From positions 178,120-242,119 of the forward strand of contig CAWEEA010000007.1 in assembly GCA_963807985.1 (NCBI GenBank): DNA of 64,000 nt, read 5' to 3'. The DNA comes from an uncultured Alphaproteobacteria bacterium (GTDB taxonomy: Bacteria; Pseudomonadota; Alphaproteobacteria; ATCC43930; CGMCC-115725). The translations under genes were made by a program, and so were the position numbers. Under the pieces are notes generated by a model that worked only from the letters and a program-made list of their open reading frames with translations, ran no database searches and had not been told where the DNA came from. The first letter of the stretch is position 1; each line of letters begins with the position of its first letter. Positions 22,080 through 64,000 of this stretch are shown here, piece by piece.

Positions 22080-22406
22080 TTACTTTACCGACGAAAAACT
22101 GGTCGGCTGCAGGATCGTGTTGGTGATCGACGCGACGATCTGGCCGTTTTTTTCGGTCTCGGCCCGCCCCGATATCCACGCTGGATCGGCCTGGAATCCG
22201 GCAAATCGCCGCGCCCGGTCGTCGAGCGATTCCCATTGCAGCATGTAATAGAGGTCCTGGTTCGACGACCCGATCGCCACCGTCCAGAATCCCGCCTGCT
22301 TGATCCCGTGCTTTTCCCACAATGGCAGGGTCAAGGTATCGAACCGCTTGATCAGGTCGGGCAGCCGGCCCGGGACGCAGTGATAGACTCGCAATTCATA
22401 GATCAT
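22080..22406 (-). CDS. NIPSNAP-family protein (tandem paralog)
   Basis: ORF 22080..22466. Start is taken at MIYELRVYHCVPGRLPDLIKRFDT after GGAGGAG. Colinear with its neighbour. Confidence 0.8.
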   Translation of the reverse strand: MIYELRVYHCVPGRLPDLIKRFDTLTLPLWEKHGIKQAGFWTVAIGSSNQDLYYMLQWESLDDRARRFAGFQADPAWISGRAETEKNGQIVASITNTILQPTSFSSVK

Positions 22407-22472
22407 GTCGTCTCCTCCGGACGATGAGCCTACACAATGCTGCCGCGGAGCGCCGCCGGCAAGCATGCCGGT

Positions 22473-41690: not shown

Positions 41691-41888
41691 TGCGTTTTCC
41701 TCCGTCGCTGGATTTGCGGGATTATAGGGCCGTACCGCGCCCGCTCAACTCACAGGGCACCACACAAGGCGGCATGACGAAGATCTGCGGCCGCAGCGAC
41801 TGCCTGACATGCTCGTTTGGGGTCGGGGTTGCCACCTGCATCCCGATGGCGGACCATGAACGCCGATCTGCCAGGGAAGGGGGCGGCG

Positions 41889-43043: not shown

Positions 43044-43093
43044 ACCACGCTTCATCGCCGTGGGCGCGCAAGCTGTCCCCGTGACCCCGTAGA

Positions 43094-44026: not shown

Positions 44027-44234
44027 ACCATGAGGGTGCCTGCTATGCCGAAACATCGAGAGCGAGCGGATTACACGTGATTCGATAATTACGAAAAATC
44101 TATCGATCGAAGAGAGAATTTTTAGAAACAATGCGTCCGCGACGCGATATAAGTGCTCTCCATTAGGGTAAACGACCGCTTAGCGTCCTCTTCGCCGCCC
44201 TCTGCGGGGCGCCCTTGCCCGGAAAGGAAACAGC

Positions 44235-45191
44235 ATGGCCCTCCGCCCGAATTTCGTCCAAGTTGTTCTCGTTATGTCCTTGTTGGCGGCTCCGGCGCAC
44301 GCCGCGACCACCGGGGTGAACCAGTTGACGACGGCGAGTGCCTCTACCTGCCCTGCCACTTCCTGGATCGATGTGCGCTGCTACGGTGCCACCGGTAACG
44401 GCAGCACCGACGATACCGCCGCGATCAACCGGGCACTGTCCGCAGCGCTCGCTGCCGACCAGCCTTTGTTCCTTCCGCATGGCACGTTCAAGCTCACGAG
44501 CCCGCTGGTCATCGACTACGGGAGCCGATCGGACACCGGATTTCGCGTGATTTCGATGGGCGCCATCCTCGACGGAAAGACGATCGCCGCGCAACCGGTG
44601 CTCGAAATCCTGTGCTCCGGCGGCACGCCGATTTCGCCAAAAGGATGCTTTTATTTCAACGAGCAAGGAACTCTGTTCGTCAATGGCCGCAGCGATAGCT
44701 ACGCCGTGGTGATCGGCCAGCGCGATTTTTCGGACGCGCAGAACTCGCTGAAGATCGATCATCTGATCGTCAACAACGCCGACGCCGGCGCGCGGGCGGG
44801 CGGGCTCCAGCTCAACTACGTGCTGAGCTCCGAAATCTTTGCGGTCGCCGACGCCGCCGGAGGGGCCGCAGGCATCGCGCTGGAGCAGACCCAAATTTCC
44901 CGCATCAGTGGCGCTGGCTCGGCGGCGGCCAAAGGCGGGGCGGCGCTGCTGATAGAGAACGGATATAGCTTTGCCAACACCATCGACGCGATGGACCTCG
45001 AAGTCGCGCCGACCTGCCTAGTGATCAATTCGCGCAACGCCGCTCACAACACCTTCATTTCACCTTACATGGCATGTCCGACGGCGGTCGACGCAAGCGC
45101 CGGCAACACCACTCGTCTCGTCAACCCGCTGTTTGGCGGAAACGTGAAAAAGGAGTTCGCTGCGGCGGTCGGCATCACCACGAGTCCGTGA
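44235..45191 (+). CDS. exported right-handed beta-helix protein (pectate-lyase superfamily / tailspike-like N-terminus)
   Basis: 318-aa ORF with a signal peptide (VVLVMSLLAAPAHAATT). IDVRCYGATGNGSTDDTAAINRAL is the characteristic N-terminal motif of Pectate_lyase_3-type proteins. The upstream region is AT-rich. Confidence 0.65.
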   Translation: MALRPNFVQVVLVMSLLAAPAHAATTGVNQLTTASASTCPATSWIDVRCYGATGNGSTDDTAAINRALSAALAADQPLFLPHGTFKLTSPLVIDYGSRSDTGFRVISMGAILDGKTIAAQPVLEILCSGGTPISPKGCFYFNEQGTLFVNGRSDSYAVVIGQRDFSDAQNSLKIDHLIVNNADAGARAGGLQLNYVLSSEIFAVADAAGGAAGIALEQTQISRISGAGSAAAKGGAALLIENGYSFANTIDAMDLEVAPTCLVINSRNAAHNTFISPYMACPTAVDASAGNTTRLVNPLFGGNVKKEFAAAVGITTSP

Positions 45192-45250
45192 CCGCGAGCG
45201 TCGGAGCTCGCGGCCTTTGACAAAGGCGGCCTCGCTGGCCAAATCTGGGT

Positions 45251-45676
45251 TGCCAGACGGCCGGACGGCCGCTCTCCGCCGCCGTGCGGGGAGAGGAAAG
45301 TCCGGGCTCCACGGAGGTACGGTGCCGGGTAACGCCCGGCGGGGGCGACCCCAGGGAAAGTGCCACAGAAAGTATACCGCCGAGCCCGCCCGCGGCATCC
45401 CTCGGGCGGGCGGCAAGGGTGAAACGGTGCGGTAAGAGCGCACCGCGCCGCCGGCAACGGCGGCGGCAGGGAAAACCCCACCGGGAGCAAGACCAAGTAG
45501 GAGCGGCAGGCATCAGGGAGCGATCCCGAGGTGCCGGGCGGACCTTTGCGCCGCCGCTCGGGTCGGTCGCACGAGGCGTCCGGTAACGGGCGTCCCAGAG
45601 GAATGGCCGTCACCGTCCCGCAAGCCCATCGGGCGGACTGGGGCGGTACAGAACCCGGCTTACGCGCCGTCTGGCA
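45251..45676 (+). ncRNA. rnpB: RNase P RNA, bacterial type A
   Basis: Conserved blocks GAGGAAAGTCCGGGCTCCA, GGTGCCGGGTAACGCCCGG, GAAAGTGCCACAGAAA, GGTGAAACGGTGCGGTAAGAGCGCACC and ACAGAACCCGGCTTA. P1 pairs TGCCAGACGGC (45251-) with GCCGTCTGGCA (-45676). Confidence 0.9.
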
Positions 45677-45917
45677 TCGCCCGGCCCCGTACAGCTCATC
45701 GGGCAGTAGTTTGTGGCGTGGACGATGTGCCGGACCAAACGGGGATAACTGCGCTTTTTTGGGGAAAACCCTGTGGATCGCCGATTGCCCCGTTGCCGCC
45801 CGCCTTCATCCGCCTAAGCTTGCCCGCGTGTGGTTGCGCCGCTGATGCCTAAGGTTGCGGCGGGGAGCCTGCGGGCGATGTTGCCGAGCCCGCGCGCCAC
45901 ACTTGGGGGGACGGGGC

Positions 45918-45948
45918 GGGCGACCTCCGGAGGTCGCCCGTTTCTCTT
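45918..45948 (+). terminator. candidate rho-independent terminator
   Basis: Perfect 22-nt palindrome GGGCGACCTCCGGAGGTCGCCC followed by GTTTCTCTT. No annotated gene ends directly upstream (rnpB ends at 45676). Confidence 0.5.
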
Positions 45949-46068
45949 GAGCGCCATCTCGAACTCGGTGCCGAGCCGCCGCCCAACAGCCCCGGCTCTG
46001 GCGCCGCAGATATTTTCCTCTGGTCAATATCACCATATTTATGGCATTCTTTTGCCATAGTTTCGATA

Positions 46069-46305
46069 ATGGCGGTTGCGATGGCGAGAGATGTAAATCC
46101 GTTGAAATCAGAGCTGATCACCTTGTCGCTTAACGTCCAGACCGTGTGGTACCTCGACCGCCTGGTCGAGACCGGTCTCTTTGGCAACAACCGCACCGAG
46201 GCGGCGCGGGTCGCCCTTTACGACCATTGTAAATTACTCGTTGCCGAACGGAAGCTGGAGATGGCCCCGCGCCTGCCGAGCAAACTGGTCGCCATGACCG
46301 AGTAG
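46069..46305 (+). CDS. small ribbon-helix-helix (CopG-like) protein; candidate regulator
   Basis: 78-aa ORF. ELITLSLNVQTVWYLDRLVETGLFGNNRTEAARVALYDH fits a strand-helix-helix pattern. No good SD, and ATG at 46081 is an alternative start. Confidence 0.45.
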   Translation: MAVAMARDVNPLKSELITLSLNVQTVWYLDRLVETGLFGNNRTEAARVALYDHCKLLVAERKLEMAPRLPSKLVAMTE

Positions 46306-46699
46306 TCTGGCCATGCCGTTCTGTATCCACGAAGCAAAAGTCCAGCCGGCGATCCCATTGCCACGTCGCCGACGGGTCGGACCGGCCACGGCACTCGGAC
46401 GTAGGCCGCCGGTCAGCAGCGTCCCCAACGCCGGTCCAAGCATAACCGGTTGTCTCACCACTGGAATGTCAGCGCGCTCGCCGGCGATGCGATGCCCTGC
46501 CCCCGCGTCAACCGCCTTACCCGCGTCGTGTCCGGACGTGGCCTATCCGAAATTTCTGACATATCGGTCGCGGCGGCCTGGCTTGCCTCTGAGACAGTCA
46601 TTCCGCCGCTTGTGTCCGGGACGCCTACGGCGACTACATAAGGTGGCCAAGCCATCTCGCATGCAATCCCTACAAAATCAAGAGTTTTATTTCACAAAG

Positions 46700-46744
46700 C
46701 CATTGACGACCATGAAGTACCATGCTATCCCATGTTCACCCATG
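46700..46744 (+). promoter_or_regulatory. five CCAT(G/T) repeats at exact 10-bp phasing overlapping a TTGACG -35-like hexamer; candidate MraZ operator / dcw promoter
   Basis: CCATT at 46700, then CCATG at 46710, 46720, 46730 and 46740. TTGACG at 46703-46708. Lies 92-136 bp upstream of the mraZ ATG. Confidence 0.55.
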
Positions 46745-46835
46745 GACGGATGTAGCCGATGGGGGGAACTTCGGCGGCATCTATCGGGCGCCCCTTGCCG
46801 AGCGTCCAAGGGCGAGCGTTGGGGGAAGAAGTGGC

Positions 46836-47304
46836 ATGTTTCTGTCCACTTACGTGAACAAGGTCGACCGCAAGGGGCGAGTTTCAGTGCCGGCGACCTT
46901 TCGCGCCTCATTGGCGGCCCAGCGTTTTCCGGGCATCGTCGCATTTCCGTCGTACAAATATCCGGCGATCGACGCCAATGGCATCGAGCGAATGGAGGAG
47001 CTGGCCGCCCGGCTCGAGACTCTCGAGGAATTTTCCGACGAGCACGAGAATCTGGCGGCGCTGCTGTTCGCCCCCTCGCAGCGGCTCCCCTTCGACACTG
47101 AGGGACGGGTGGTGTTGCCGGCGGACCTAGCCGCAGCATGCCTTTATTACCGACAGCGCAGCCTTTGTCGGTCTAGGCAAGAGTTTTCAGATCTGGGAAC
47201 CCGGCCGTTTCGCCGAACATCTGGCGAATCTGCGCGAGCGCGCCCGCCGGCAAGGGACCAAGATCCCGCCGCTCGGCGGTATGCCAGACCGGCGCCGGGA
47301 ATGA
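46836..47304 (+). pseudogene. mraZ: transcriptional regulator MraZ with 1 frame switch as assembled
   Basis: [23 protein letters not shown]...[16 protein letters not shown], then after TTT at 47143-47145, [26 protein letters not shown]... The stop overlaps the rsmH ATG (ATGA 47301-47304). Confidence 0.9.
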
Positions 47305-48356
47305 CCAGAAGCCGCCCACTGCCGCCGCGGCGCGAACACCGCGCCGGTCGAGACGAGAGTGAGGCGATTGGAGGGGCGGAGCATGTGCCAGTGCTGGTCG
47401 AGGCTGTCATCGATGTACTGTCGCCGCGCGACGACGCCCTCTATGTCGACGGCACATTTGGCGCCGGCGGTTATAGCCGGGGCGCTGCTCGCCGCAGCTG
47501 ATTGCCGTGTCGTCGCGATCGATCGTGATCCCGATGCGGTGCGGCGCGGCCGCGAGCTGGCGCGCGTCCCATGGCGGGCGGCTCGCCATCATCGAAGGGA
47601 ATTTCGGCGATATGGAGCGGCTGCTGGCGTCGCCGGGGTCGATGACGCCCGCGCCGATCGCCGGGATCGCGCTCGATCTCGGCGTCTCCTCTATCCAGCT
47701 CGACACTGCCGAACGCGGGTTTTCGTTCCGCTTCGATGGACCCCTCGACATGCGCATGAGCGGGGCGGGGCAGACCGCCGCCGATTTCGTCGCTACTCTC
47801 GCCGAGAGCGATCTCGCTCGCCTGATCCGCGAATTCGGCGAAGAGCGCTTTGCTCGCCGAATCGCCCGCGCGATCACCGCGGCCCGGCGGCTCCAGCCGA
47901 TCGGCCGTACCCTCGAACTCGCCCAGATCGTGCGCACCGCGGTGCCCAAGCCCGCGCCCGGGATTGACGCGGCGACGCGCACGTTCCAGGCACTGCGGAT
48001 CGCCGTCAACGACGAGCTCGGCGAACTCGATCGCGCGCTCGGCGCGGCCGAACGGCTGCTGATGCCGGGCGGACGGCTCGCCGTCGTGTCGTTTCATTCG
48101 CTCGAAGATCGGCGGGTCAAGGACTTCCTGCGGCAGCGCAGCGATAGCGGCACCTCGCGCCTCGCGCCACGAGCCGGTTCCCGCCACGGTTGCAGCGCCG
48201 AGCTTCCGGCTGCTGCATCGCCGGGCGCTCAAACCTGACATCGAGGAAATCGACCGCAACCCGCGTGCACGGGCGGCGCGGCTGCGCGCGGCGGAACGCA
48301 CCGCCGCCCCACCCTGGCCGCCGAGTCGCGACCGACAACAGCGGCACGCCGCATGA
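47301..48356 (+). pseudogene. rsmH: 16S rRNA (cytosine1402-N4)-methyltransferase RsmH with 3 frame switches as assembled
   Basis: [13 protein letters not shown]...[10 protein letters not shown] | [20 protein letters not shown] | [11 protein letters not shown]...[10 protein letters not shown]...[11 protein letters not shown] | [29 protein letters not shown]. Switches are near 47470, 47565 and 48185. The stop overlaps the ftsL ATG. Confidence 0.9.
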
Positions 48357-48724
48357 TCAAGCTCTCCGCACTGTTCTGGTTGCTATTGGTCTCGGCGACG
48401 GGCTTCGCAATGTTCGCGATCAAGTACGAGGTCCAGGCCGTCGCCGACCAGCTGGCCCAAACAACCAAACGGGCGGACGACGCCGAGCGCGACATCCGCG
48501 TCTTCGACGCAGAATGGGCTTATCTGAACCGGCCCGACGCGCTGGCCCAGATGAACCAACGCTATCTGTCTCTGGCGCCGATCGCGACGAAGCAACTGAT
48601 CGCCAATATAGCCGAGATTCCGATGCGACCGGCGCCGCCGCCGCGCGGCCGAGACAGCGGCTGCCGTCGCCGAAAACTCACACCCGCAGAACGTATCGCC
48701 CGCGGCATCCCCTCCTGCTTGTAG
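48353..48724 (+). CDS. ftsL: cell division protein FtsL (alphaproteobacterial type); C-terminal end uncertain
   Basis: [36 protein letters not shown]... gives a single TM helix followed by a coiled coil, in the canonical slot between rsmH and ftsI. The tail after ~residue 95 may be affected by an unresolved frame change. Confidence 0.7.
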
Positions 48725-48934
48725 AACAGCCGGCCGAAAGCACCAAGCCGCCGGCAGAAAAGCGGGGCCCCCGTCCTGACCGTCGCACTCGAAACCCGAA
48801 ATGCGACACCCGAGCCGGCGAGACCGGTGCCAACCAAGGCGACACCGCACCCGAACTCGGCAAACCGGGCCAAATCGCTCGATGAATTGATCGCGCAGAT
48901 CGCGGAGAACCGGTGATGAGCGCGGTCCACCAGT

Positions 48935-50692
48935 TTGACGACAATCCGTGCCGGCCGCGCCATTTCAAGCCGCCGCACTGCGCCCCGGTCGTTCCGGACG
49001 GTCCGGCAAGGCGAGCGCTCGACGGCTGCCGCGCCCGGCTCCTCGTCGCGACTGTCGTCATTCATCATGGTCTTTGCGGTCATCGCCGGGCGGCTCGTCC
49101 AGGTTACATTGCTGCCGGGCGCCGTCACCGTACCCTCTATTGCTCGCTTCCATCCGCCGCCGCCGCCCCGCCTGGCCGCGCCGACATTATCGACCGCGAA
49201 CGGCAAGCTGTTGGCGACGACACTGGACAGTCCCTCGCTTTACGCCAATCCGCGGCAGATCGTCGATGCCGCCGACGCGACGCGCAAACTCCTCGCCGCA
49301 CTGCCGGGTCTCGACCGCGCTCAACTCTTGGCCAAGCTGAACTCGGGCAAGGGTTTCGTATGGGTCAAGCGCCATCTGACCCCAGACCAGGAATATGCAG
49401 TCAACCAGCTCGGGATACCGGGGCTGCAATTCGAGCATGAGGAGCGCCGCGTCTACCCCTATGGCAATCTCCTGTCGCATGCGGTCGGCTATACCGGGAT
49501 CGACGACAACGGTCAGGCCGGGATCGAGCGCGGCCTCGACGATCAATTGCGCGGGCGCCAGGAGCCGCTGCAGCTGTCGATCGACCTGCGTCTGCAATAT
49601 ATCCTGCACGAAGAACTGCAGCGCGTGGTCGACGATTTCACCGCCAAGGGCGGCGACGGGCTGATCATGAACGTCAACACCGGCGAGGTCCTGGCGATGG
49701 TGTCCTTGCCGGATTTCGATCCGAGCCATCCCGGCACGCTCGATCCCAACCATCCGAACATTCCGGTGGCCGAGCGGATGTTCGACCGGGTCACGCTCGG
49801 CGATTACGAGATCGGCTCGGTGTTCAAGATCTTCACCACGGCGATGGGGCTCGATTCGGGCGCCACCACGATGACCGGGGTCTTCGACGCGACCCATCCG
49901 ATCCACATCGGGCGGTTCACGATCTCCGACTATCACGGCAAGCATCGCCCGCTGACCGTTCCCGAAATCCTGATGTATTCGTCGAATATCGGCGAGGCCA
50001 AGATCGCGCTTGCGGTCGGCGCCGATCGGCAGCAGGAATATCTGCGCCGATTCGGGCTGTTGACCTCGCCGAGTTTCGAGCTGAAGGAGATCGGCCGGCC
50101 GCACTTATCCGGCGAAGTGGCGCGAGGTCAACGTCATGACGATCGGCTTTGGCCACGGCATTTCCGAGACCCCGTTGCAGATCGCCAGCGCGAGCCTCGG
50201 CGCTGGTCAATGGCGGCGTGCTGCGCCCGGCGACCCTGCTCAAACTGCCGCCCGGCGATGCGCCGCAAGGCCGCCAGGTGATTTCGCGCGGAAACCTCGG
50301 AGCACATGCGCAAGTTGTTGCGCATGGTCGTCCTCTACGGGACCGGCGAAATGGTGGACGCGCCGGGCTATGTCGTCGGCGGCAAGACCGGCACCGCCGA
50401 CAAAGTCGAGGGCAAGCATTATGCCGAGCAGAAGTTGCTCTCGAGCTTTGTCGGCGTCTTCCCGATGACCGCGCCTAAATATCTGGTCCTGGTGATGGTC
50501 GACGAGCCGCATGGCACCAAGGCGAGCCACGGCTTCGCGACCGCCGGCTGGACCGCAGCCCCGGCGGTCGGCCGCACCATCGTGCGCATCGCGCCATTGC
50601 TCGGCGTGCAGCCAGTCGATGAATCCTCGCCGGCGATCGCGCAAGCGCTGACGCCCGAGAGCATGCAAGGCAAGCGGATTGAAGCTTACTGA
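48935..50692 (+). pseudogene. ftsI: peptidoglycan D,D-transpeptidase FtsI (PBP3) with at least 5 frame switches as assembled
   Basis: TM helix FIMVFAVIAGRLV. RADIIDR | NGKLLATTL is split near 49199. SxxK as IGSVFKIF. PAKWREVNVMTIGFGHGIS | ALVNGGVLRPATLL | MRKLLRMVV...GGKTGTADK. Switches are near 49100-49170, 49199, 50100, 50200 and 50295. The N-terminal start is uncertain. Confidence 0.85.
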
Positions 50693-52185
50693 GCTGATCG
50701 ACATCGCCGAATGCCCAGCCTGGCCCGGCCTCGCGAGGCGATCCGGAAATTGCCGGGATCACCGCCAATTCGCGCGCGGTACTTCCCGGCTTCCTGTTTG
50801 CTGCGCTGCCCGGCACGCGGCTCGACGGGCAGGTTATTCGCTGCCGATGCGGCGGCGCGCGGCGCGGTTGCGATCCTGACCGACGATGCTGCGGCGCTCG
50901 GCCTCGCGGCGGAAGACCGCGCGCGGGTCGCGATCGTCGCCGACCCGAACCCGCATCGCCGGCTGGCGCTGCTGGCGGCGCGCTTTTACGGCCGGCAGCC
51001 GCGAACCATCGCCGCCGTCACCGGGCACCAACGGCAAGACCTCGGTCGCCCATTTCATCCGTGAGATCTGGACCGCCGCCGGCCATCTCGCGGCGAGCCT
51101 CGGCACGCTCGGGTTGGTGACGTCCGTCCGGGCGCCGCCCGGGCGCGCTGACGACGCCCGACCCGGTCGCCCTCCATCGCGATCTCGCCGCGCTTTGCGC
51201 ACAAGGGATCGAGCATGTCGCGGTCGAGGCGTCGAGCCACGGTCTCGCCCAGTTTCGCCTCGACGGCCTGTCGGTCGCCGCTGCCGCCTTTACCAATTTG
51301 ACCCGCGATCATCTCGACTATCACCGCGACATGGCGCAATACCGCGCCGCCAAGGAACGGCTGTTTACCGCGCTGCTGGCGATCGGGGCAGCCGGCGGTG
51401 CTGAACCGTGACAGCGCCGAATTTCCGCGACTGGCGGCGCTGTGCCGCGACCGCGGCCATCCGGTTATCGGCTATGGCGGCGACCCAGCTGCCGAATTGC
51501 GGCTCGTCGCGGCGCGGCCGGGGACAGCGGCCAGCGCCTGGTCCTCGAGATCTTTGGGCGGCGCCACGAATTCTTGCTGCCGCTGCTCGGCGAGTTCCAG
51601 GCGATGAACGCGCTCTGCGCACTCGGTCTGGCGATTGCGACCGGTGTCCCGGCGGCGGCGGCGACTGCGGCGCTCGCACAGCTCACCGGGGTTCCGGCCG
51701 GCTCGAATTCGTCGCCGAGGCCAGCGGCGGGGGCCCGATCGTCGTCGATTACGCCCACACTCCCGATGCGCTTGCGACCGTGCTCGCGGCGCTGCGCCCG
51801 CATGCGCCGGGCCGGCTCGTGGCCGTTTTCGGCTGCGGCGGCGACCGCGATCCGGGCAAGCGGCCGCTGATGGGGCGCGTCGCAGCGGACGCCGCCGACC
51901 GGGTTTACGTGACCGACGACAATCCGCGCAGCGAAGATCCCGGCCGCGATCCGCCGCGCGATCCTTGCCGCCGCCCCAGGGGCGATCGAGATCGGCGACC
52001 GGCGCCGCGCGATCGAGACCGCGATCGCCGAACTCGGCACCCGGCGACCTGCTGGTCATCGCCGGCAAGGGCCACGAAACCGGCCAGATCATCGGCGGAC
52101 GAGACATTGCCGTTCGACGATGCTGAAATCGCCCGCGAAATCGCCGGCACGCTGCGGCCGAGCGTGCCGGCGGGCCAGCGGATGA
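50679..52185 (+). pseudogene. murE: UDP-N-acetylmuramoyl-L-alanyl-D-glutamate--2,6-diaminopimelate ligase MurE with ~11 frame switches as assembled
   Basis: The TTG start overlaps the ftsI end. Segments: MKLTELIDIAE | DPEIAGITANSR..LPGFLFAALPGTRLDG | RLFAADAAARGAVAIL...IAAVTG | TNGKTSVAHFIREIW | [14 protein letters not shown]...EASSHGL...[12 protein letters not shown] | LNRDSAEF... | [15 protein letters not shown]... | GRLEFV...[11 protein letters not shown]...FGCGGDRD...DDNPRSEDP | AAIRRAIL... | [12 protein letters not shown] | [11 protein letters not shown]. Confidence 0.85.
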
Positions 52186-53595
52186 CGCCGCTGTGGACCG
52201 CGGCCGACGCTGCGCGCGCGACTGGCGGGGCGGGCGCCGCCGATTGGGCGGCGACGGGTGTTTCGATCGATACCCGCACGCTGGCGGCGGGCGACCTCTT
52301 CGTCGCGCTGCGCGGCCCCAACCATGACGGCCACGATTTTGTCGCGGCGGCGTTCGAACGCGGCGCCGCCGCGGCGATGGTCGATCGCGACAGGTCGTCG
52401 GGCTGCCGCCGGGGGCGCCGCTGCTGCGGGTCGGCGACACGCTCGCCGGTCTCGGCGCGCTCGGCCGATTTGCCCGCGCCCGCAGCAGCGCGCGGATCAT
52501 CGCGGTGACCGGCAGCGTCGGCAAAACCGGGACCAAGGAGGCGCTGCGCTTGGCGCTCGGCGCCTGCGGCAGCGACTTTCGCCTCCGCCGGCAGCCTCAA
52601 CAATCACTGGGGGGTGCCGCTGTCGCTGGCCCGCATGCCGCCCGATGCGGCTTATGGCGTGTTCGAGCTCGGCATGAACCATCCCGGCGAGATCGCCGCA
52701 CTGACCCGCCTGGTGCGGCCCCACATCGCGGTGATCACGACCGTCGAGCCGGCGCATCTCGGTTTTTTCGGCTCGGTCGAGGCGATCGCCGACGCCAAGG
52801 CCGAGATCTTTCTCGGGCTCGAACCGGGCGGGAGTCGCCGTCCTCAACCGCGACAATCCGCATTATCCGCGCCTTGCCGCATGGGCTGAGCGCGCGGGGG
52901 TGGATCGAAGTGATCAGCTTCGGCGCCGATCCCGAGGCCACAGTCCGGCTCGTCGATTGCTGTGCTGGAGCCTGACGGCAGCACGATCGCGGCAAGATGT
53001 TGGGGCGTTCCCGTGCGCTTCCGTTTGCCCGTCCCCGGCCGGCACTGGGTCATGAACGCGCTCGCCGTGCTGGGCGCAACGATGGCGGCCGGCTGCGATG
53101 TCCGATTTGCGGCCGAAGGCGCTCTTGGGCCTCGAAGCGATGCCGGGCCGAGGCCGCCGCCATCGGCTGGCTTGGCGGGGCGGGATCTTGACCCTGATCG
53201 ACGAGAGCTACAATGCGAGCCCGGCGGCGATGGAGGCCGCCATTGCGGTGCTCGCCGCGACTTTGCCAGCGGCCGGCGGCCGGCGGGTGGCGGTGCTGGG
53301 CGACATGCTCGAGCTCGGCGATGCGACCGAGCGTTTCCATCGCAATCTGGCAGCACCTCTTGCCGCGGCCGGGGTCGATCGCGTGTTCCTGGTCGGCAAA
53401 GCGATGGCGGCGCTGCACGAGGTCCTGCCCGCGGCCAGCCGGGGCGGATTGTGGCCGTCTGCCGATCAGGCTATCCCTGCGCTGTTAAGCTTTCTTCAGT
53501 CCGGCGACGTCGTGACGGTCAAAGGCTCCTACGGCGTGCATGTCGGCCGCATCGTCGAGCGGCTGATCGCCGAATCGGCGCGACGCGAGACCTGA
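52182..53595 (+). pseudogene. murF: UDP-N-acetylmuramoyl-tripeptide--D-alanyl-D-alanine ligase MurF with 6 frame switches as assembled
   Basis: [16 protein letters not shown]...[26 protein letters not shown] | [17 protein letters not shown]...[15 protein letters not shown] | TFASAGSLNNHWGVPLSL...ELGMNHPGEI | VAVLNRDNPHY | EVISFGADPEA | LEPDGSTI...GRHWVMNAL | ...LIDESYNASPAAM...GDMLELGD... Confidence 0.85.
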
Positions 53596-53599
53596 TCTG

Positions 53600-54690
53600 A
53601 TGCTTTATCGGCTGCTCTACCCGCTCGCGGACCAGTTCCAGGCTTTCAACCTGTTCCGCTACATCACCTTTCGCTCGGGCGGAGCGGTCGTCACCGCGCT
53701 GTTGATCAGCTTTCGTCTTTGGCCGGCCGATCATCGCCTGGCTGCGCTCAAAGCAGACCAACGGTCAGCCGATCCGCCTCGACGGCCCCGCCGGGCATCT
53801 GGTCCGCAAAAAGGGAACGCCGACGATGGGCGGCTTCCTGATCCTGCTGGCGCTGACGGTCGCGACCTTGCTGTGGGCGGATTTGACCAACCCCTATGTC
53901 TGGATCGTGCTGCTGGTCACCGTCGGGTTCGGGCTGATCGGCTTTTTTGACGACTATAAAAAGCTGACCAGCAATTCGCATCGCGGGCTGTCCGGGTCGA
54001 CCAAGATCGTGCTCGAAATCGGGGTCGGCGTGCTCGCCTGGCATCGCGCTCGGCTATGTGACCCCGGCGCCGCTGGCGAACACGCTCGCCGTGCCGTTTT
54101 TCAAAAACGTGCTGATCCCTCTCGACGGGCTGTTCGTGCCGTTCGGCGTCCTCGTCATCATCGGCGCGTCGAACGCGGTCAACCTGACCGACGGGCTCGA
54201 CGGGCTCGCGATCGTGCCGGCGATGATCGCCGCCGGCTGCTTCGCGCTGATCGCCTATTTCGTCGGCAATGCGGTCTTCGCCAACTACCTGCAGATCCAC
54301 CATGTTCCGGGGGCCGGCGAGCTGACCGTGTTTTGCGGCGCCATGGTCGGCGCCAGCCTCGGTTTTCTGTGGTTCAACGCTCCGCCGGCGATGGTCTTCA
54401 TGGGCGACACCGGGTCGCTGTCGATCGGCGGCGCGCTCGGGACGATCAGCGTCGTCACCAAGCACGAGCTGGTGCTCGCGATCATCGGCGGGCTCTTCGT
54501 GCTCGAGGCGGTGTCGGTCATCGTCCAGGTCGCCAGCTTCAAGATCACCGGGCGGCGCGTCTTCCGGATGGCGCCGCTGCACCATCACTTCGAGCAAAAG
54601 GGCTGGGAGGAGCCGACGATCGTCATCCGCTTTTGGATCATCGCCTCGATCCTGGCGATCGCCGGGCTCGCCACCTTGAAGCTGCGGTGA
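53600..54690 (+). pseudogene. mraY: phospho-N-acetylmuramoyl-pentapeptide-transferase MraY with 2 frame switches as assembled
   Basis: MLYRLLYPLADQFQAFNLFRYITFRSGGA...LLISF | [14 protein letters not shown]...GTPTMGG...DDYKKL... | GIALGYV...[13 protein letters not shown]...FMGDTGSL...HHHFE. Switches are at TTT 53711-53713 and near 54040. Confidence 0.9.
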
Positions 54691-54824
54691 TGCGCGATGA
54701 CCGATGGGGGGATCGCACAAATAGTAGCTAGATGCGGCCACAGCCGCTATATATCCTCTCTCGACGAGGGTCGGGGGGCTGGGTCCGGTGGCGAGCCTTG
54801 CCCGAACGGCGAGGATCGATCCCG

Positions 54825-55945
54825 ATGAGGTTCGCCCGCATCGATCAGAGCCCGGTGGCGCGCTGGTGGTGGACCGTCGATCGATGGAGCCTCGCCGCGC
54901 TCTGCGTCCTGATGGGTTTCGGCGTGCGTCATGAGCCTGGCGGCGAGCCCGGCGGTCGCCGAGCGAATCGGCTATGACGGCATGCATTTCGTCCGCCGTT
55001 ATCTCGCCCTCCTGCCGGTTACGATCGGCGTGATGTGGCTGGTCTCGCTGCAAACGCCGCGGACGGTCCGCCGCATCGCCTTTATCGTCTTCGGCATCGG
55101 ACTCGTGCTGCTGGCGCTGACTTTTGTCGTCGGCGCCGAGATCAAGGGGGCGCGCCGATGGATCAATCTGCCGTTGCTGTCGTTGCAGCCCTCCGAATTT
55201 GTCAAGCCCGTGCTTTGCCGTCGTCGCCGCCTGGCTGTTCTCCGAGCAAAAGCTGCGCCGGGGCTTTCCGGGCAACCTGATCTCTGCGGCATTGTTGCTG
55301 CTGATCGTCGGGATGCTGATCGCGCAGCCCGATATCGGCATGGCGGCGGTGGTGGCGACAGTATGGTTCGGACAATTTTACATGGCCGGTCTGCGGCTCT
55401 ATTGGGTCGTGTTGTTCGGCCTCGGCGGGATTGGTGCGCTGGCCGGCGCCTATACTTGCTTGCCGCATGTCAGGGTTCGGGTCGATCATTTCCTCGATCC
55501 GGCAGCCGGCGACAGCTATCAGGTCAACCGCTCGCTCGAAGCATTCGCCAATGGTGGATTGTGGGGGCGCGGCCCGGGCGAGGGCACGATCAAATATGTG
55601 CTGCCCGACGCGCACGCCGATTTCGTGTTCGCCGTTGCCGGCGAGGAATTGGGGCTGATCGTCTGCCTTGTCGTCGTCGGGCTGTTTGCCTTTGTCGTGC
55701 TGCGCGGGTTTTCGCGGCTGCGCCAGGAGGGCAGCCTGTTCGTGCTGCTGTCGGCGACCGGCCTGTTGATCCAATTCGGGCTTCAGGCGGTCATCAACAT
55801 GGCCTCGACCTTGCACATGATGCCGACCAAGGGGATGACCTTGCCGTTTTTGTCTTATGGCGGCTCCTCGATGCTCGCGCTCGGGTTGGGGATGGGGATG
55901 CTGCTGGCGCTGACCCGCCGCCGGCTAGCGGGAAGCGCTCTGTGA
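54825..55945 (+). pseudogene. ftsW: peptidoglycan glycosyltransferase / cell division protein FtsW with 2 frame switches as assembled
   Basis: MRFARIDQSPVARWWWTVDRWSLAAL | MSLAASPAVAER...LQPSEFVKPV | FAVVAAWLF...PDAHADFVFAV...PTKGMTLPFLSYGGSS. Switches are near 54928 and 55212. Confidence 0.9.
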
Positions 55946-57058
55946 GCACGCGCTGTTGCTCTCGCCGCAGGCGGCACCGGCGGGCACTTGTTCCCGGCCG
56001 AGGCGCGTGGCAGCCGAACTGGTCGAACGCGGCCGGCAGGTGCATCTGCTGACCGATTCGCGAGCCGATGCCTTTGCCCGGGCGTTCCCGGCGTCGCGAT
56101 CCACAGCGTGCGTGCCGGAAGGCTCGGCGGCGGGCCGGTTCGCGCCGCCTACGGCCTGGCCGAGCTGGCGGCCGGTGCCGTTCAGGCACGCCGGCTGCTG
56201 CGCCGGCTGTCGCCGCAGGCGGTCATCGGCTTTGGCGGCTATCCGTCGGTGCCGACGATGCTGGCGGCGGCGTCGCTTGGACTGGCGACCCTGATCCACG
56301 AGCAGAATGCGGTCCTCGGCCGCGCCAACCGGCTGCTGGCGCCCCGGGTGCGGCGGATCGCCACCGGTTTCCCGAGACCGCCGGGATGCGCCCGGCCGAC
56401 CGAGCCCGCGCCGTCCATACCGGGAACCCGGTCCGGCAGGCGATCCTCGCCATCGGCGAGCCCGGCTATGAGCCGCCAGTGCCGGGCGGGACAGATCGAG
56501 CTGTTGATCCTCGGCGGCAGCCAAGGCGCTCATGTTCTGAGCGAGATCGTGCCGCCGGCCCTGGCGGCGTTGCCGCCGGGCATGCGCGCCGCGCTCAGGG
56601 TCAGCCAGCAGGCGCGCCCCGAGGATCTCGCCGCGGTTGCCGAAGCCTACGCCGAAACCGGCATCGCCGCAGAGATCGAAAGCTTTTTCGCCGATGTGCC
56701 GCAGCGGCTGGCGCGCGCGCATCTGGCGATCTGCCGGGCCGGCGCCTCGACCGTGGCCGAGCTCTCCGCTATCGGCCGGCCGGCATTGCTGATCCCTTAC
56801 CCGCACGCGACCGACGACCACCAGACCGCCAACGCCCAGGCTTTCGCCGCAGCCGGCGGCGGATGGGTCGTCGCGCAGGCGGATCTGCGCCCCGATACCC
56901 TCGCCGCTCGGCTGCAGGATCTGCTCGGTGACGGCGCTTCGCTGACTCGAGCGGCGCAGCGCGCGCAGGGCTTCGGCCGGCGCGATGCGGCCCGCCGTCT
57001 GGCGCTGCTGGCGCTGGCGCTTGAACCCGGCGACGCGTTCGAGGGGTATGCGGCATGA
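55942..57058 (+). pseudogene. murG: UDP-N-acetylglucosamine--N-acetylmuramyl-(pentapeptide) pyrophosphoryl-undecaprenol GlcNAc transferase MurG with 5 frame switches as assembled
   Basis: The GTG start overlaps the ftsW stop (GTGA). VSTR | AVALAAGGTGGHLFPAEA | AAELVERGRQVHLLTD | GVAIHSVRAG...GFGGYPSVP...HEQNAVLGRANR | ETAGMRPADRARAVHTGNPVR | QIELLILGGSQGA...ICRAGASTVAEL... Confidence 0.9.
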
Positions 57059-58481
57059 GGGCGTTGCCGCTGACCATCGGGCCGTTGCATTTTGTCGGCA
57101 TCGGCGGCATCGGCATGAGCGGCATCGCCGAGGTTCTGCACAATCTCGGCTATCGCGTGCAGGGCAGCGACCTCGCCGACGGCGCCAATGTCCGCCGCCT
57201 GGTCGAGCTCGGCATCCCGGTCGCGGTCGGGCACGACGCGGCCAATCTCGGCGCCGCCGAGGTCGTCGTGATCTCCTCGGCGGTCGCGCCCGACAACCCC
57301 GAAATCGCTCGCGGCCCGCGCGCGACGGCTGCCGGTCGTGCGGCGCGCCGAAATGCTGGGCGAGTTGATGCGGCTCAAATGGTCGCTGGCGGTCGCCGGC
57401 ACCCACGGCAAGACGACGACGACCTCGATGATCGGCGCTCTGCTCGAAACCGCCCAGCTTGATCCGACCGTGATCAATGGCGGCATCATCAACGCCTATG
57501 GCACCAATACCCGGCTCGGCGCCGGCGACTGGATGGTGGTCGAGGCCGACGAGAGCGACGGCACCTTCACCCGGCTGCCGGCGACAGGTCGCGATCGTCA
57601 CCAATATCGATCCCGAGCATCTCGATTTTTACGGCGGCTTCGACGCGCTGCGTCAGGCGTTCGAGACCTTTGTCGGCAACATTCCGTTCTACGGCTTCGC
57701 CGCGCTGTGCATCGATCACCCGGTCGTGCAGGGGATGATCCCCAAATTGTCGGATCGCCGCGTGCTGACCTACGGGATGAGCCCGCAGGCCGACATCCGC
57801 GCGGTCGATCTGCGGCTCGGGCGCGACGGGGCGCGCTACGACATCGTCGTTTCGGATAGCGTGACGGAGCGCGGACGGACGGTTCCGGACCTGTATCTGC
57901 CGATGTTCGGCCGGCACAACGTGCAGAATTCGCTGGCCGCGGCGGCGGTCGCCGAGGCGCTCGGGCTCGGCGACGACGCGCTGCGCGCGGCATTGCGCAA
58001 TTTTAAAGGGGTCAAGCGTCGCTTTACCAAGACCGGCGAATGGAACGGGGTGACGGTGATCGACGATTACGGCCACCATCCGGTCGAGATCGCGGCGGTA
58101 TTGAAGGCGGCGCGCGCGATCGTCTCGGGCAAGGTCATCGCGGTCGTGCAGCCGCACCGCTACAGCCGCGTGTCGCATCTGTTCGACGGGTTCTGCACCT
58201 GCTTCAACGATGCCGACATCGTTCTCGTCGCCGACATTTATGCCGCCGGCGAGGCGCCGATCGAGGGCGTAACAAGGGACGCGATCGTCGCCGGGCTGAT
58301 CGAGCACGGACATCGCAACGTGCGCGCGCTCGCCGACCCTGGCGATCTCGCGCCGCTGGTCGCCGAGCTGGCGCGGCCCGGCGACATGGTGGTGTGCCTC
58401 GGCGCCGGCTCGATCACCGCTTGGGCCAACAGCCTGCCCGGCGAACTCGCCGCCCTGGAAAATCGCGAGCGAAGCGGATGA
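57055..58481 (+). pseudogene. murC: UDP-N-acetylmuramate--L-alanine ligase MurC with 2 frame switches as assembled
   Basis: [17 protein letters not shown]... | [30 protein letters not shown]...EADESDGTF | [15 protein letters not shown]...DDYGHHP... Switches are near 57310 and 57585. ATGA overlaps at both ends. Confidence 0.9.
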
Positions 58482-59434
58482 TCGCGCTGCACGCGGAAGC
58501 TATATGCCCCGCCGATTGCGGCGCTTGGCCACGTGCGCGGCCGGCTGATCACGAATGCGCCGATCGGCCAAGCAGACCTGGTTCGGCGTCGGCGGACCGG
58601 CGGAAATACTGTTCCGGCCCGCCGATCGCGAGGACCTCGCCGCCTTCCTCGCGGCGTTGCCGCCGGAAGTTCCGGTAACGGTGATCGGCGGCGGCGCCAA
58701 TATACTGATCCGCGACGGCGGGCTTCCCGGCGTCACGATCCGCCTCGGCCGCGGTTTTGCCGGCAGTCGCCATCGACGGAAGCGAGGTCGTGGCCGGTGC
58801 CGGGGCGCTTCACCTCAACGTCGCGCTGGCTGCTGCCAAGGCCGGGATCGCCGGGCTTGAATTCCTCTCCGGAATCCCGGGGACGATCGGCGGCGGGTTG
58901 CGGATGAATGCCGGCGCCTATGGCCGCGAGATCAAGGATGTGCTGGTTTCGGCAACGGCGCTCGACCGCAGCGGCGCTTCCCACCTGATTGCGGTCGAGG
59001 CGATGGGGTTTTCCTATCGCCATTGCGGGGTCGACCCCGACTGGATTTTCGTCGAGGCGCGGCTGCGCGGCACCCACGGCGATCCGGCTACGATCGTGCG
59101 GCGGATGGCCGAGATCAGGCAGTCGCGCGAGGCGACTCAGCCGATCCGCACCCGCACCGGCGGCTCGACCTTCAAGAACCCGCCGGGCGACACGGCCTGG
59201 CGCCTGATCGACCTTGCCGGCTGCCGCGGTCTCGTGCGCGGCGGGGCGATGGTATCGCCGCAGCACGCGAATTTTCTGATCAACACCGGCGACGCCACCG
59301 CCGCCGATCTCGAAGGGCTCGGCGAGGAAGTGCGGCGCCGGGTCTACGAGGCGACCGGGGTCGTGCTCGAATGGGAAATCCGCCGGATCGGCCGCCCGCT
59401 TTCCGGGGTCGAGCCAATCGCTGAGGGGTGCTGA
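58478..59434 (+). pseudogene. murB: UDP-N-acetylenolpyruvoylglucosamine reductase MurB with 3 frame switches as assembled
   Basis: MIALHAEA... | [11 protein letters not shown] | [17 protein letters not shown]...[14 protein letters not shown] | [11 protein letters not shown]...[18 protein letters not shown]...GGSTFKNP. Switches are near 58500-58530, 58572 and 58760. Confidence 0.9.
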
Positions 59435-59438
59435 AGCG

Positions 59439-60358
59439 GTGACCAAAACCGTCGCATTGCTGATGGGCGGCTGGTCGCCCGAGCGCGAGGTGTCGCTGTC
59501 GAGCGGGCGGGAATGCGCCAAGGCGCTCGTCGACCACGGCTATCGGGTCAAGGCTGTCGATGTCGGCCGCGACCTGCCGGCATTGCTGCGCGCCCTCGAG
59601 CCGCGCCCCGAGGTGATCTTCAACGCCTTGCACGGCATCGGCGGCGAAGACGGCACGATCCAGGCCGTCTTCGAGATGCTGCGCATCCCCTACACCCATT
59701 CGGGCGTTCTCGCCTCGGCGCTGGCAATGCACAAGCCGACCGCAAAGATGGTCTTTCGTGCCGCCGGGCTGCCGGTCGTCGAGGGTGTCGTCGCCAGCCC
59801 CGAGGAACTCGCCGGCACGATCCGATGCCGGCGCCCTTTGTCGTCAAGCCGACCAATCAGGGATCGAGCGTCGGCGTGCGCATCGTCCGGATCGGCGACA
59901 ATTCCTGGCGCGAGGAGGTCGCGGGCTGGCGCTTCGGCGACGAAATCATGGTCGAGCGCTTTATTCCCGGGCGCGAGCTGACCGTCGCGGTGATGGGCGA
60001 TCGCGCGCTCGGGGTCTGCGAAATCGTCCCGCGCGGCAGCTTTTACGACTACACCGCAAAATATGCGCAAGGCGGCTCCGATCACCTGGTGCCGGCCCCG
60101 ATCCCCGTCCGGATCTACGAGGAGGCGCTCGACATCGCACTTCGCGCGCACTGGGCGCTCGGCTGCCGCGGCGTCAGCCGCGCCGATCTGCGCTACGACG
60201 ACACGCCGGAGGGCGACGGCCGGCTTTATCTGCTGGAGGTCAACACCCAGCCGGGCATGACCCCGACTTCGCTGGTTCCCGACATTGCCCGGCATGCCGG
60301 CATCGGCTTTGACGAACTGGTGGTGTGGATCGTGGAGAACGCGGCATGCGAGGGGTAA
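59439..60358 (+). pseudogene. ddl: D-alanine--D-alanine ligase with 1 frame switch as assembled
   Basis: [19 protein letters not shown]...[12 protein letters not shown]... | [15 protein letters not shown]...YDYTAKY...[10 protein letters not shown]. The switch is near 59815. Confidence 0.9.
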
Positions 60359-61204
60359 GGGCGGCGGTGCCGATGCGGCGTCGCCGCGCTGGCTGGACCG
60401 GGCGGCTGCGCCGCCTCGCCTGGTGGATCGGCGTTCCCGCTTTTCTCGCCGTCGCCGTTTACGGCACCGCGCTGTTCGGCCGATCCCCGCTCGGCCAGTC
60501 CGTCCTCCACGGCGCCTCGAGCCGTTTGCTCAGCGCCAGCGCGGCGATTGGCTTTCGGGTCGCCGACATCCGCGTCGAGGGGCGCGAAACCACCGATCGC
60601 GAGACGATCCTCGAATGCGCTCGGCGCTCGGCCCGGCACCCCGATCCTGGCGGTCGATCCGGTCCGCGCCAAGCAGCAGCTCGAAAGTCTGCCATGGGTC
60701 CGCTCCGCGCTGATCGAGCGTCGGCTTCCCGATACGCTCTACGTCCGCCTTGTCGAGCGCGAGCCGATGGCCTTGTGGCAGCACGGCGGCAAGATCGAGT
60801 TGATCGACCGCACCGGCGCGGTAATCCCGGTCACCCGTCTCGACCGGTTCGCCAAATTGCCGCTGGTCGTCGGTGAAGACGCGGCGAGCCACGCGAGCGA
60901 ACTGCTGGCGATGCTGGCGAGCGAACCCGACCTCGCCGCGCGCGTCACCGCGGCGGTGCAGGTCGGCGGCCGACGCTGGAATTTGCGCATCGACAATTCG
61001 ATCGACGTTCTGCTCCCTGCGGACGACCCAGCGGCGGCGTGGGCCGATCTCGCCCGCCTCCAACGATCGAGCGCTATTCTAAAGCGCGACGTTCAGGCCA
61101 TCGACATGCGTTTGCCCGATCGGCTCGTCGTGCGTGTCGTCCCAGAGCCGCCAAAGGAAGCCCCGCCAGCCAAGAAAGGACGCCCGCCGGCGAAGAATAC
61201 ATGA
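60346..61204 (+). pseudogene. ftsQ: cell division protein FtsQ with 1 frame switch as assembled
   Basis: TM helix WWIGVPAFLAVAVYGTALF, then FRVADIRVEGRETTDRETIL | GTPILAVDPVRAKQQLESLPWVRSALIERRLPDTLYVRLVEREP (POTRA). The switch is near 60615. The stop overlaps the ftsA ATG. Confidence 0.85.
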
Positions 61205-62562
61205 CCGCGATCGACGAGGTGTTGATGCGCGCGAGCGACCCGAAGGAGACCGCGACAACCGCAAAGCGCGGAAAGGGCGAAAAGACCAAATCGCGCCGGG
61301 CGCCGCGACCGCCCAAGCCGCCGCATCGGCCGCGCGGCAGCCTGATCGCGGCGCTCGATATCGGCACGACCAAGGTGTGCTGCTTTATCGCCCGGGTCGA
61401 GCCCGAGAAGCCGCAGGTCATCGGCATCGGCCATCAAATCTCGCGCGGCCTGCGCAACGGGGCGATCGTCGATCTCGAAGCGGCCGGCGCCTCGGTCGCC
61501 AACGCGGTGCACGCCGCCGAGGAGATGGCCGGGGAAACGATCCAGCAGGTCGTGGCCAATTTGTCGGGCGGTTTCTCGGCTTCGCGCATCATCAAGGCCG
61601 AGATCGGCGTCGCCGGGCGCGAGGTCGGCGAGGCCGAATTGCAGCGCGTGCTCGATCAAGGCTATCTGCTGCGCGAGCCCGGCGACCGCCAGATCATCCA
61701 TTCGGTGCCGGTCGGGTTCTCGATCGACGACAGCCGCGGCATCCGCGACCCGCGCGGCATGTATGGCGAGCGGCTCGGCGTCAACATGAACGTCGTGACG
61801 GCTGGCGCCGCCGGGGTGCGCAACCACAGCGCGGCGATCGGGCGCTCGCATCTCGACGTCGAGGCGTTGGTCGTCAGCCCTTACGCCGCCGGGCTCTCCT
61901 GCCTTGTCGAGGACGAAATCGGGCTCGGCGTGACGGTCATCGACATGGGCGGCGGAACGACGACGATCGGCGTGTTTTTCGACGGCAATCTGATCTTTGC
62001 CGATTCGGTGCCGGTCGGCGGCTGCCACGTCACCAACGACATCGCCCGCGGGCTGTCGACCCCGGTCGCTCATGCCGAGCGGATGAAAACGCTGTTCGGC
62101 ACCGCCATTTCCGCCAGCACCGACGAGCGCGAGATGATCGCCGTGCCGCAGATCGGCGAGGAGGAGGAAGGGCACGTCAACCATGTGCCGAAATCCCTGC
62201 TCGTCGGCATCATCGCGCCGCGCATCGAGGAGACCTTCGAGCTGGTGCGCAACCGGCTCGAAGCGAGCGGGTTCGACAAGGTCGCCGGCCGGCGCGTGGT
62301 GCTGACCGGCGGGGCCTGTCAACTGCATGGCGCGCGCGAATTCGCCGGCCTGATCCTCGACAAGCAGGTCCGCATCGGGCGCCCGCTGCGGGTTGCCGGC
62401 CTCGCCGAGGCGACTGCTGGTCCGGCCTTCTCGGCCGCCGTCGGTCTGCTCCATTTCGCGATGTCGGAGCGCGCCGAGACGCCGCACGCCGGGCGCGCGC
62501 CGGCCGGGCCGCCGAGCGGGATTCTCGGCCGACTGGGTCACTGGCTGAAGGAGAACATCTGA
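61201..62562 (+). CDS. ftsA: cell division protein FtsA (intact)
   Basis: Within ORF 61039..62562, with the ATG at 61201 overlapping the ftsQ stop (ATGA). ALDIGTTKVCCFIA, VIDMGGGTTTIGVF, VLTGGACQLHG (actin-fold phosphate motifs). No frame break found. Confidence 0.9.
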   Translation: MTAIDEVLMRASDPKETATTAKRGKGEKTKSRRAPRPPKPPHRPRGSLIAALDIGTTKVCCFIARVEPEKPQVIGIGHQISRGLRNGAIVDLEAAGASVANAVHAAEEMAGETIQQVVANLSGGFSASRIIKAEIGVAGREVGEAELQRVLDQGYLLREPGDRQIIHSVPVGFSIDDSRGIRDPRGMYGERLGVNMNVVTAGAAGVRNHSAAIGRSHLDVEALVVSPYAAGLSCLVEDEIGLGVTVIDMGGGTTTIGVFFDGNLIFADSVPVGGCHVTNDIARGLSTPVAHAERMKTLFGTAISASTDEREMIAVPQIGEEEEGHVNHVPKSLLVGIIAPRIEETFELVRNRLEASGFDKVAGRRVVLTGGACQLHGAREFAGLILDKQVRIGRPLRVAGLAEATAGPAFSAAVGLLHFAMSERAETPHAGRAPAGPPSGILGRLGHWLKENI

Positions 62563-62693
62563 GGCAAATTGTCGTTTTGATGCCGGCGCGGCTATCGGTA
62601 CCGGATAAAACCGGCTAAATCGATGTCGGCCAAAAGAGGGGGAAGCCCGGATCCGTCCGGGCATGATCGAGGCTGCGCAGCAGTGGAGGACAT

Positions 62694-64000
62694 ATGATCA
62701 ATCTGAGCATCCCGAGGGACGAGCAGGAGATGAAGCCCCGCATCACCGTTGTCGGGGTGGGCGGCGCCGGGGGAAACGCCGTCAACAACATGATCCGCTC
62801 GAATTTGGTCGGGTGTGAGTTCGTCGTCTGCAATACCGATGCGCAGGCGATGCAGCAATCGACCGCCCACCGCAAGATCCAGCTGGGGATCGGCGTCACC
62901 CGCGGGCTCGGCGCCGGGTCGCGGCCCGATGTCGGGCGCGCCGCCGCCGAGGAGGCGCTCGACGAAATTCTCGAAGCGATGCAGGGCTCGAACATGGTGT
63001 TCATCACCGCCGGCATGGGCGGCGGCACCGGCACCGGCGGCGCGCCGGTCATCGCCCGCATCGCCCGCGAAATCGGGAATTCTGACGATCGGCGTCGTGA
63101 CCAAGCCCTTTCATTTCGAGGGCAGTCACCGCATGCAGATCGCCGAAGCCGGGATCGAGGAACTGCAGAAATTCGTCGACACTTTGATCATCATCCCGAA
63201 CCAAAATCTGTTCCGTGTCGCCAATGAGCGCACGACCTTTGCCGACGCCTTCAAGATGGCGGACGACGTCTTGCATTCGGGCGTGCGCGGCGTCACCGAC
63301 CTGATGGTGATGCCGGGGCTGATCAATCTCGATTTCGCCGATATCCGCACGGTGATGAGCGAGATGGGCAAGGCGATGATGGGCACCGGCGAGGCCGAAG
63401 GCGACCGCCGGTCGATCGACGCCGCCGAGGCTGCGATCTCGAACCCGCTGCTCGAGGACGTGTCGATGAAGGGCGCCAAGGGCGTCCTGATCAACATCAC
63501 CGGCGGCCCCGACATGACCTTGTTCGAGGTCGATGAAGCCGCCAATCGCATCCGCGAGGAGGTCGATCCCGAAGCCAACATCATCTTCGGCTCGACCTTT
63601 GACGAAACCTTGTCAGGCAAGATGCGGATCTCGGTCGTCGCTACCGGCATCGACGCCGAGGCGCTGACCCAGGCGCGGCCGGCGATCAGCCTGGTCAGCA
63701 GCCGGGAGACGGTGCCGGCGCTCGCGCGAAGCGACCTCCGGGGGCTATACCCAGCCGGTGCTGACCCAGAACGCGGCGCAGCCGCCGCTCGAAGCAGGAC
63801 GAGACGCCGCCCGCGCCGAGCATGACAGCGAGCCGGTGCCGCAGGCGGCGGCAGCGGCCGAAAGCGTCGCGATGCGCGGCGGCGCCTTCATCGCCCCCAA
63901 GCCGGTCGATGCCGGTCCCGCCCGTCCGGTGCCGCTGACCCAGCCGGCGGTTCCGGTAACGCCGCCGATGCGCGATGCCGCGCCAAAACCGAAAGGGCGG
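62694..64000 (+). pseudogene. ftsZ: cell division protein FtsZ, partial at the right edge, with 2 frame switches as assembled
   Basis: [49 protein letters not shown] | [15 protein letters not shown]...NLDFADI... | [12 protein letters not shown]...AFIAPKPVDAG... remains open to position 64000. Switches are at AA 63079-63080 and near 63700-63750. Confidence 0.9.

Follow-up and report, generated by a model that had tools for sequence, protein, structure and literature searches.

Patches of single-base frame shifts in the division and cell wall cluster of an uncultured alphaproteobacterium: probable consensus errors of a long-read metagenome assembly

The division and cell wall (dcw) gene cluster of an uncultured alphaproteobacterium, located at the right end of a 64-kb stretch of contig CAWEEA010000007.1 (hereafter the window; G+C content ~65%), is broken by ~49 frame shifts, nearly all of a single base. 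As judged from the comparison with related sequences, these shifts very probably represent uncorrected indel errors in the consensus of an error-prone long-read metagenome assembly, falling in patches of poor read support, and the dcw genes of the organism itself are almost certainly intact and under normal purifying selection. The window would most likely derive from Nanopore-only data, like its nearest relatives, and low or heterogeneous depth may account for the kilobase scale of the patches. An artefact, rather than ancient decay, had already been the leading explanation in an earlier sequence-only reading of the window; the ratio of nonsynonymous to synonymous substitution rates (dN/dS), the stop codons, the indel spectrum, an affected amidohydrolase gene and other Nanopore-only metagenome-assembled genomes (MAGs) all agree with it.

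The comparison set consisted of 80 related loci, obtained from species-representative genomes with a fragment of FtsW as the query. The nearest loci belong to uncultured Alphaproteobacteria/Stellaceae MAGs, mostly from the Microflora Danica (MFD) long-read project. Across the whole cluster, the closest DNA is that of L067 (92.7% nucleotide identity), followed by L004 (91.6%) and L003 (91.4%), the last of which has intact open reading frames (ORFs) for nearly all dcw genes. In addition, L086, which is the L067 contig, and L087 were retrieved via homologues of an NHL-repeat gene and are syntenic with the window from position 35757 on.

Number of frame shifts and selection on the restored genes

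Frame shifts were counted in two ways. Frameshift-aware protein-to-DNA alignment by dynamic programming, with intact proteins of the relatives as the reference (count A), revealed 40 events of +1, 1 of +2 and 8 of -1 in the dcw cluster. In a six-way MAFFT DNA alignment of window positions 45101-64000 with L003, L004, L067, L001 and L012 (count B), 39 insertions and 6 deletions, all of a length not divisible by three, are strictly private to the window; when only the agreement of the three closest relatives is required, 43 insertions can be counted along with 6 deletions, spread over 47133-63724. This alignment contains no indel private to the window with a length divisible by three, and each of the three close relatives has 3-5 private indels not divisible by three. 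Such a concentration of private indels in one sequence is what a consensus artefact would be expected to leave. With divergent references, the dynamic-programming aligner produces ~0.2-0.4 false calls per kb. A simple chain of tblastn high-scoring segment pairs finds only 14 of the 49 window events; because it under-counts dense frame shifts, it was replaced by the dynamic-programming aligner and kept for comparison between loci only.

The number and direction of the shifts correspond well to the hand count of the sequence-only reading, which had arrived at about 44 switches, mostly +1 and a few -1. Its division among the genes recurs almost gene for gene, except that ftsL, with three real +1 shifts, had been overlooked. 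Fifteen dcw genes are colinear with L003, with overlapping junctions and in the canonical order except for murD. The ATGA/GTGA overlaps are preserved at all seven junctions that had been named (47301, 48353, 52182, 55942, 57055, 58478 and 61201), and further GTGA junctions are found at 48913 and 59439.

The reading frames of 13 genes (5192 codons) were restored by deleting the private insertions and filling the deletions. None of the 13 restored genes contains an internal stop, as had been claimed for the segments between switches, and their products share 86-98% amino acid identity with the L003 proteins. Compared with L003, the window has a dN/dS of 0.141, close to the values for the intact pairs L004-L003 (0.14) and L067-L003 (0.136). 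The window branch carries 116 private substitutions, 35% of them nonsynonymous and 64% in the third position of a codon, and the branches of the relatives are alike. Frame-shift density, assessed in 800-nt bins, shows no significant correlation with GC, divergence or private substitutions. Purifying selection, as expected if the shifts arose in the consensus, is therefore evident, and the relaxed selection and nonsense mutations expected of pseudogenes were not found.

These results bear directly on the possibility of a genuine, very recent inactivation, affecting a second, redundant copy or, alternatively, the cluster of a lineage in the course of losing its wall. The frame shifts are present in the sequence as given, and premature stops ensue in the shifted frames; however, the dN/dS and the nonsynonymous fraction are those of functional relatives, and this explanation appears very unlikely. 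Neutral indels numbering 49 should bring several hundred neutral substitutions, mostly nonsynonymous, whereas merely 116 private substitutions of any kind are present. No second dcw gene was found within the 64-kb window.

The dcw genes, all on the forward strand, and their events are as follows.
46836-47304, +: mraZ, 1 private +1 insertion (G at 47133); with the frame restored, 98.7% amino acid identity to the MraZ of L086.
47301-48356, +: rsmH, 3 private +1 insertions (47477, 47567 and 48148).
48353-48916, +: ftsL, 3 shifts of +1 (~48645, 48718 and 48761) and a premature stop at 48722-48724, from three-frame translation against the FtsL of L087 and L003.
48913-50692, +: ftsI, 6 events (49057, 49167 as a deletion, 49201, 50107, 50191 and 50289).
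50679-52185, +: murE, 10-12 events (10 in count A); the densest stretch, with ~7 per kb.
52182-53600, +: murF, 6-7 events (7 in count A), including the only 2-nt insertion, at 52386-52387.
53597-54690, +: mraY, 2 +1 insertions (53710 and 54040).
54732-55945, +: ftsW, 2 +1 insertions (54928 and 55212); directly after mraY, with no murD between.
55942-57058, +: murG, 5 events (55950, 56005, 56078 as a deletion, 56367 as a deletion, and 56492).
57055-58481, +: murC, 2 +1 insertions (57308 and 57589).
58478-59442, +: murB, 3-4 events (58506, 58568 and 58765; a fourth, at the C-terminus, is doubtful); 4 in count A.
59439-60358, +: ddl, 1 deletion (59812).
60325-61204, +: ftsQ, 1 +1 insertion (60614).
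61201-62562, +: ftsA, an intact 453-aa ORF with 0 events, as reported earlier, within 2456 nt (60614-63070) that contain no event.
62694-64000, +: ftsZ, running past the window end, 2 +1 insertions (63070 and 63724).

Spectrum and sequence context of the indels

Relative to the three closest relatives, insertions exceed deletions by 43 to 6 (p = 6e-8), and every indel but one is 1 nt long, the exception being 2 nt. Bacterial pseudogenes are characterized by deletion bias, varied indel lengths and slippage at repeats, and this natural spectrum was not recovered here; an insertion excess of ~7:1 with no indel above 2 nt argues further against inactivation, and a redundant copy disabled very recently would have to show a mutational spectrum without known bacterial parallel. 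Among the insertions, the four bases (G 20, C 13, A 6, T 3) occur in line with the local composition, and the dinucleotide pattern at the insertion sites follows it as well. Among the 42 single-base insertions, 31 (74%) are unlike both neighbours, compared with ~51% expected at random (p = 0.003), and 11 touch an identical base; most of the deletions, too, lie away from runs. The homopolymer placement that the sequence-only reading had given to several switches is borne out for about a quarter of the events, and homopolymers are not supported as the main sites. Several of its example positions were ~4-10 nt off or named the wrong base (the base at 53710 is a C followed by TTT, and that at 47133 a G flanked by C on both sides).

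The direction of the shifts could also be taken to suggest that the extra bases are real and that function is kept by recoding at ~45 sites, through +1 ribosomal frameshifting, quadruplet decoding or transcript-level correction. The overwhelmingly +1 character of the shifts would fit such a system, as would the coding signal and purifying selection that remain intact between them. However, the search for a motif or methylation-site context around 47 sites yielded no position-specific signal, k-mer or recurring four-base codon, and no site is conserved in relatives of 92-96% identity, where recoding would require a shared motif at conserved sites. Moreover, 6-8 of the events are -1, and shifts are nearly lacking from the left 41.8 kb, which belongs to the same genome. 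A recoding system of such density is not known from bacteria, and this explanation has next to no probability.

The cluster shares with the pseudogene clusters of reducing genomes, such as those of Mycobacterium leprae and recent endosymbionts, the presence of several shifts per gene with the gene order kept. Unlike these, it lacks relaxed selection, stop codons and deletions above 1 nt and has an insertion bias, while its affected genes are essential and the shifts are private to one sequence.

Patches along the window and in other assemblies

The frame shifts are strongly clustered, with ~56 events in 41.8-64 kb and 2 in 1-41.8 kb (binomial p = 1e-23), which bears out the regional enrichment proposed earlier; at 47.1-60.6 kb, the density is ~3 per kb. 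The left 35 kb was counted without a reference because the loci fetched via dehydrogenase homologues share that gene only and have no synteny. Scoring of the left part was based on a codon-usage Viterbi frame tracker and on how far the old frame continues before its next stop, with a Pfam check. At a true gene boundary in this G+C-rich DNA, an upstream stop lies no more than ~35 nt from the frame switch, whereas at most frame shifts the old frame is open well past ~35 nt; the tracker finds most of the known right-side shifts. Two clear breaks were identified in the left part, fewer than the approximately four reported by the sequence-only reading, and at 35.7-41.8 kb no coding frame shift was found by comparison with the syntenic L086 and L087.

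The poor consensus had been proposed to be confined to the dcw stretch. Instead, the dense zone begins at 41816 in a non-dcw gene of the amidohydrolase family, 4 kb upstream of the cluster, which has a density of ~6 per kb. Its shifts are seen in the DNA alignment to L087 and with the Viterbi tracker, and the N- and C-terminal parts of the Pfam Amidohydro_1 match lie in different ORFs. It is followed by a 4.0-kb gap (43.1-47.1 kb) with no coding shift, which is improbable at the dcw rate (P ~3e-4), as, to a lesser degree, is the 2.5-kb ftsA gap (P ~0.035). The density ranges more than 50-fold inside one 64-kb stretch. Since the patches are of kilobase scale and a non-dcw gene is affected alike, the phenomenon is not tied to the dcw genes, which adds to the evidence against inactivation. 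A chimeric contig or lineage mosaic was also considered as the cause and rejected, as the identity to L086/L087 is ~92% on either side of the patch borders.

The features outside the dcw cluster that define this distribution are listed below.
8836-9553, -: PspA/IM30 gene, isolated +1 near 9090; the Pfam match covers profile positions 3-144 of 220 only.
28788-29676, +: polysaccharide deacetylase gene, isolated +1 near 29250; the Pfam match covers profile positions 18-101 of 124 and is then truncated.
41816-43085, +: amidohydrolase-family gene, non-dcw, ~7 single-base shifts (41816-17, 41953, 42012, 42384, 42516, 42912 and 43085).
43086-47132, +: gap between the dense patches, with EamA-type and pectate-lyase-like genes and intergenic DNA; no coding shift, and an extra intergenic T at 46013 as the only private indel.
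The two left-side shifts (near 9090 and near 29250) are of the same +1 type as those of the dense patch.

Frame shifts of this kind recur in other assemblies. According to the tblastn chain, dcw frame changes are present in 17 of the 28 MFD long-read MAG loci but in only 1 of the 52 Illumina MAG or isolate loci, and in the other loci 35 are of +1 and 18 of -1. The sensitive aligner detected 29 events in L068 (23 of +1 and 6 of -1, mostly in murE/murF but also in mraY), 27 in L088, where rsmH and murC are affected, and 18 in L002, of which 14 lie within ftsA and ftsZ, so that this locus is patchy too. The Illumina and isolate controls gave 3-7 events, which corresponds to the method background with divergent references. 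A few private single-base insertions, not in homopolymers, also occur in L087, L004 and L067, and the called gene lists of L087 and L085 contain split genes. The recurrence within the same technology is that expected of a consensus artefact, and the same pattern in unrelated long-read MAGs is difficult to reconcile with inactivation. For the MFD long-read MAGs, assembly with Flye (meta, nano-hq) was followed by one round of Medaka polishing, and Nanopore-associated errors in the lower-coverage MFD MAGs have been reported by the authors (PMC12313526). Nanopore consensus indels are known to give rise to frame-shift errors, and near-finished genomes require ~40-fold coverage (PMC9262707). The window resembles the long-read consensus errors targeted by IDEEL-type tests (PMC9262707, PMC12313526) in that single-base indels split ORFs while the protein signal is intact, that low-coverage long-read MAGs of the lineage have such shifts and Illumina assemblies lack them, and that there is no substitution excess; it differs in that its events are mostly non-homopolymer and insertion-dominated, whereas the literature stresses homopolymer indels.

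Several observations count against consensus errors as the explanation. The classic residual Nanopore error is the homopolymer indel, and the concentration in homopolymers that would be its signature is not found: the events avoid homopolymers and favour insertion. The nearly clean left 41.8 kb, in sharp contrast to the right part, can be explained only by assuming something further, for example an effect of local depth or a failure in polishing. A region of raw-read quality might be expected to show an excess of substitutions, and none is seen. Finally, no independent copy of the same strain was encountered: exact-protein look-ups with FtsA and the 3-hydroxyacyl-CoA dehydrogenase gave no match, the best match in the FtsA homologue search had 93% identity, and the best match among metagenome contigs scanned with the frame-restored MurE had 75%. 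With respect to the first of these points, homopolymer avoidance and insertion bias are also observed in relatives from the same kind of data, and therefore appear to be a property of the pipeline at low support.

A different technical route to the same artefact is possible but rather doubtful, in which reads of co-occurring strains or species were collapsed or mis-recruited in polishing, or parts were left as unpolished draft, giving rise to extra bases in patches. The data set of the relatives does include several related Stellaceae-like MAGs out of the same samples, non-homopolymer insertions are compatible with two alleles being retained at one site, and the patch size of 1-13 kb approximates the scale of reads or polishing chunks. 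On the other hand, the shift-free coding stretches (35.7-41.8 and 43.1-47.1 kb) are as close to the relatives (~92%) as the dense ones, and the window exhibits few private substitutions and no mosaic pattern. In the sequence, the traces of such a route would resemble those of simple low depth.

Gene content of the region and significance of the frame shifts

In its genes, their order and the overlapping junctions, the cluster matches the canonical alphaproteobacterial dcw cluster (mraZ-rsmH-ftsL-ftsI-murE-murF-mraY-murD-ftsW-murG-murC-murB-ddl-ftsQ-ftsA-ftsZ), except that no murD separates mraY from ftsW, either in the window or in the nearest clade. The gene is missing at 54690-54732 and does not occur elsewhere in the 64 kb, and it is likewise missing from this place in L001-L015, L018-L020, L027 and L067, which make up the nearest clade. 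In 51 other related loci, including those of other Stellaceae MAGs and Dongia isolates (e.g. L016, L021, L025 and L079), murD is at its canonical place. The earlier gene list lacked murD because the gene is truly absent from the cluster; presumably, it was relocated in this sub-clade.

Further differences from the relatives were noted upstream of the cluster. Colinearity with L086 and L087 (~92%) breaks off abruptly at position 35757, on the border of a LysR-type gene, and the left context differs; possible causes are a rearrangement, an accessory region and a mis-join. At the position of the intergenic segment 40210-40300, L086 (11400-13700) has ~2.3 kb extra, in which a 442-aa ORF and a GIY-YIG gene lie, and the window region 42.2-44.05 kb, with the amidohydrolase and EamA genes, is absent from L086. 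Even at 92% identity, relatives thus differ in what precedes the dcw cluster. In the left part of the window, two tandem paralogous genes of ~110 aa are arranged head to tail on the reverse strand (21741-22079 and 22083-22472), both starting ...YELRVYHCVPGRLPDL..., and by eye these small genes (21741-22472) look NIPSNAP-like.

With respect to data quality, the public long-read MAGs of this lineage contain kilobase patches with 2-7 shifts per kb in essential genes, beside sequence that is nearly free of errors. Homopolymer-aware polishing or filters would miss these errors because most of them lie outside homopolymers. Gene calls, pseudogene counts and inferences of a "loss of cell wall" from such contigs would be erroneous if made without frame-shift-aware annotation or checks of the reads.

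It is scarcely credible that the ~45 extra bases are truly present in a living Stellaceae-like bacterium, either as an insertion burst that disables its sole cluster or with dense +1 read-through by a novel form of recoding. If this were true, an insertion burst in the only cell-wall and division cluster would signal that the bacterium is starting to live without a wall or in dependence on a host. As biology, the frame shifts are of no consequence, since in the organism itself these genes are almost certainly intact.

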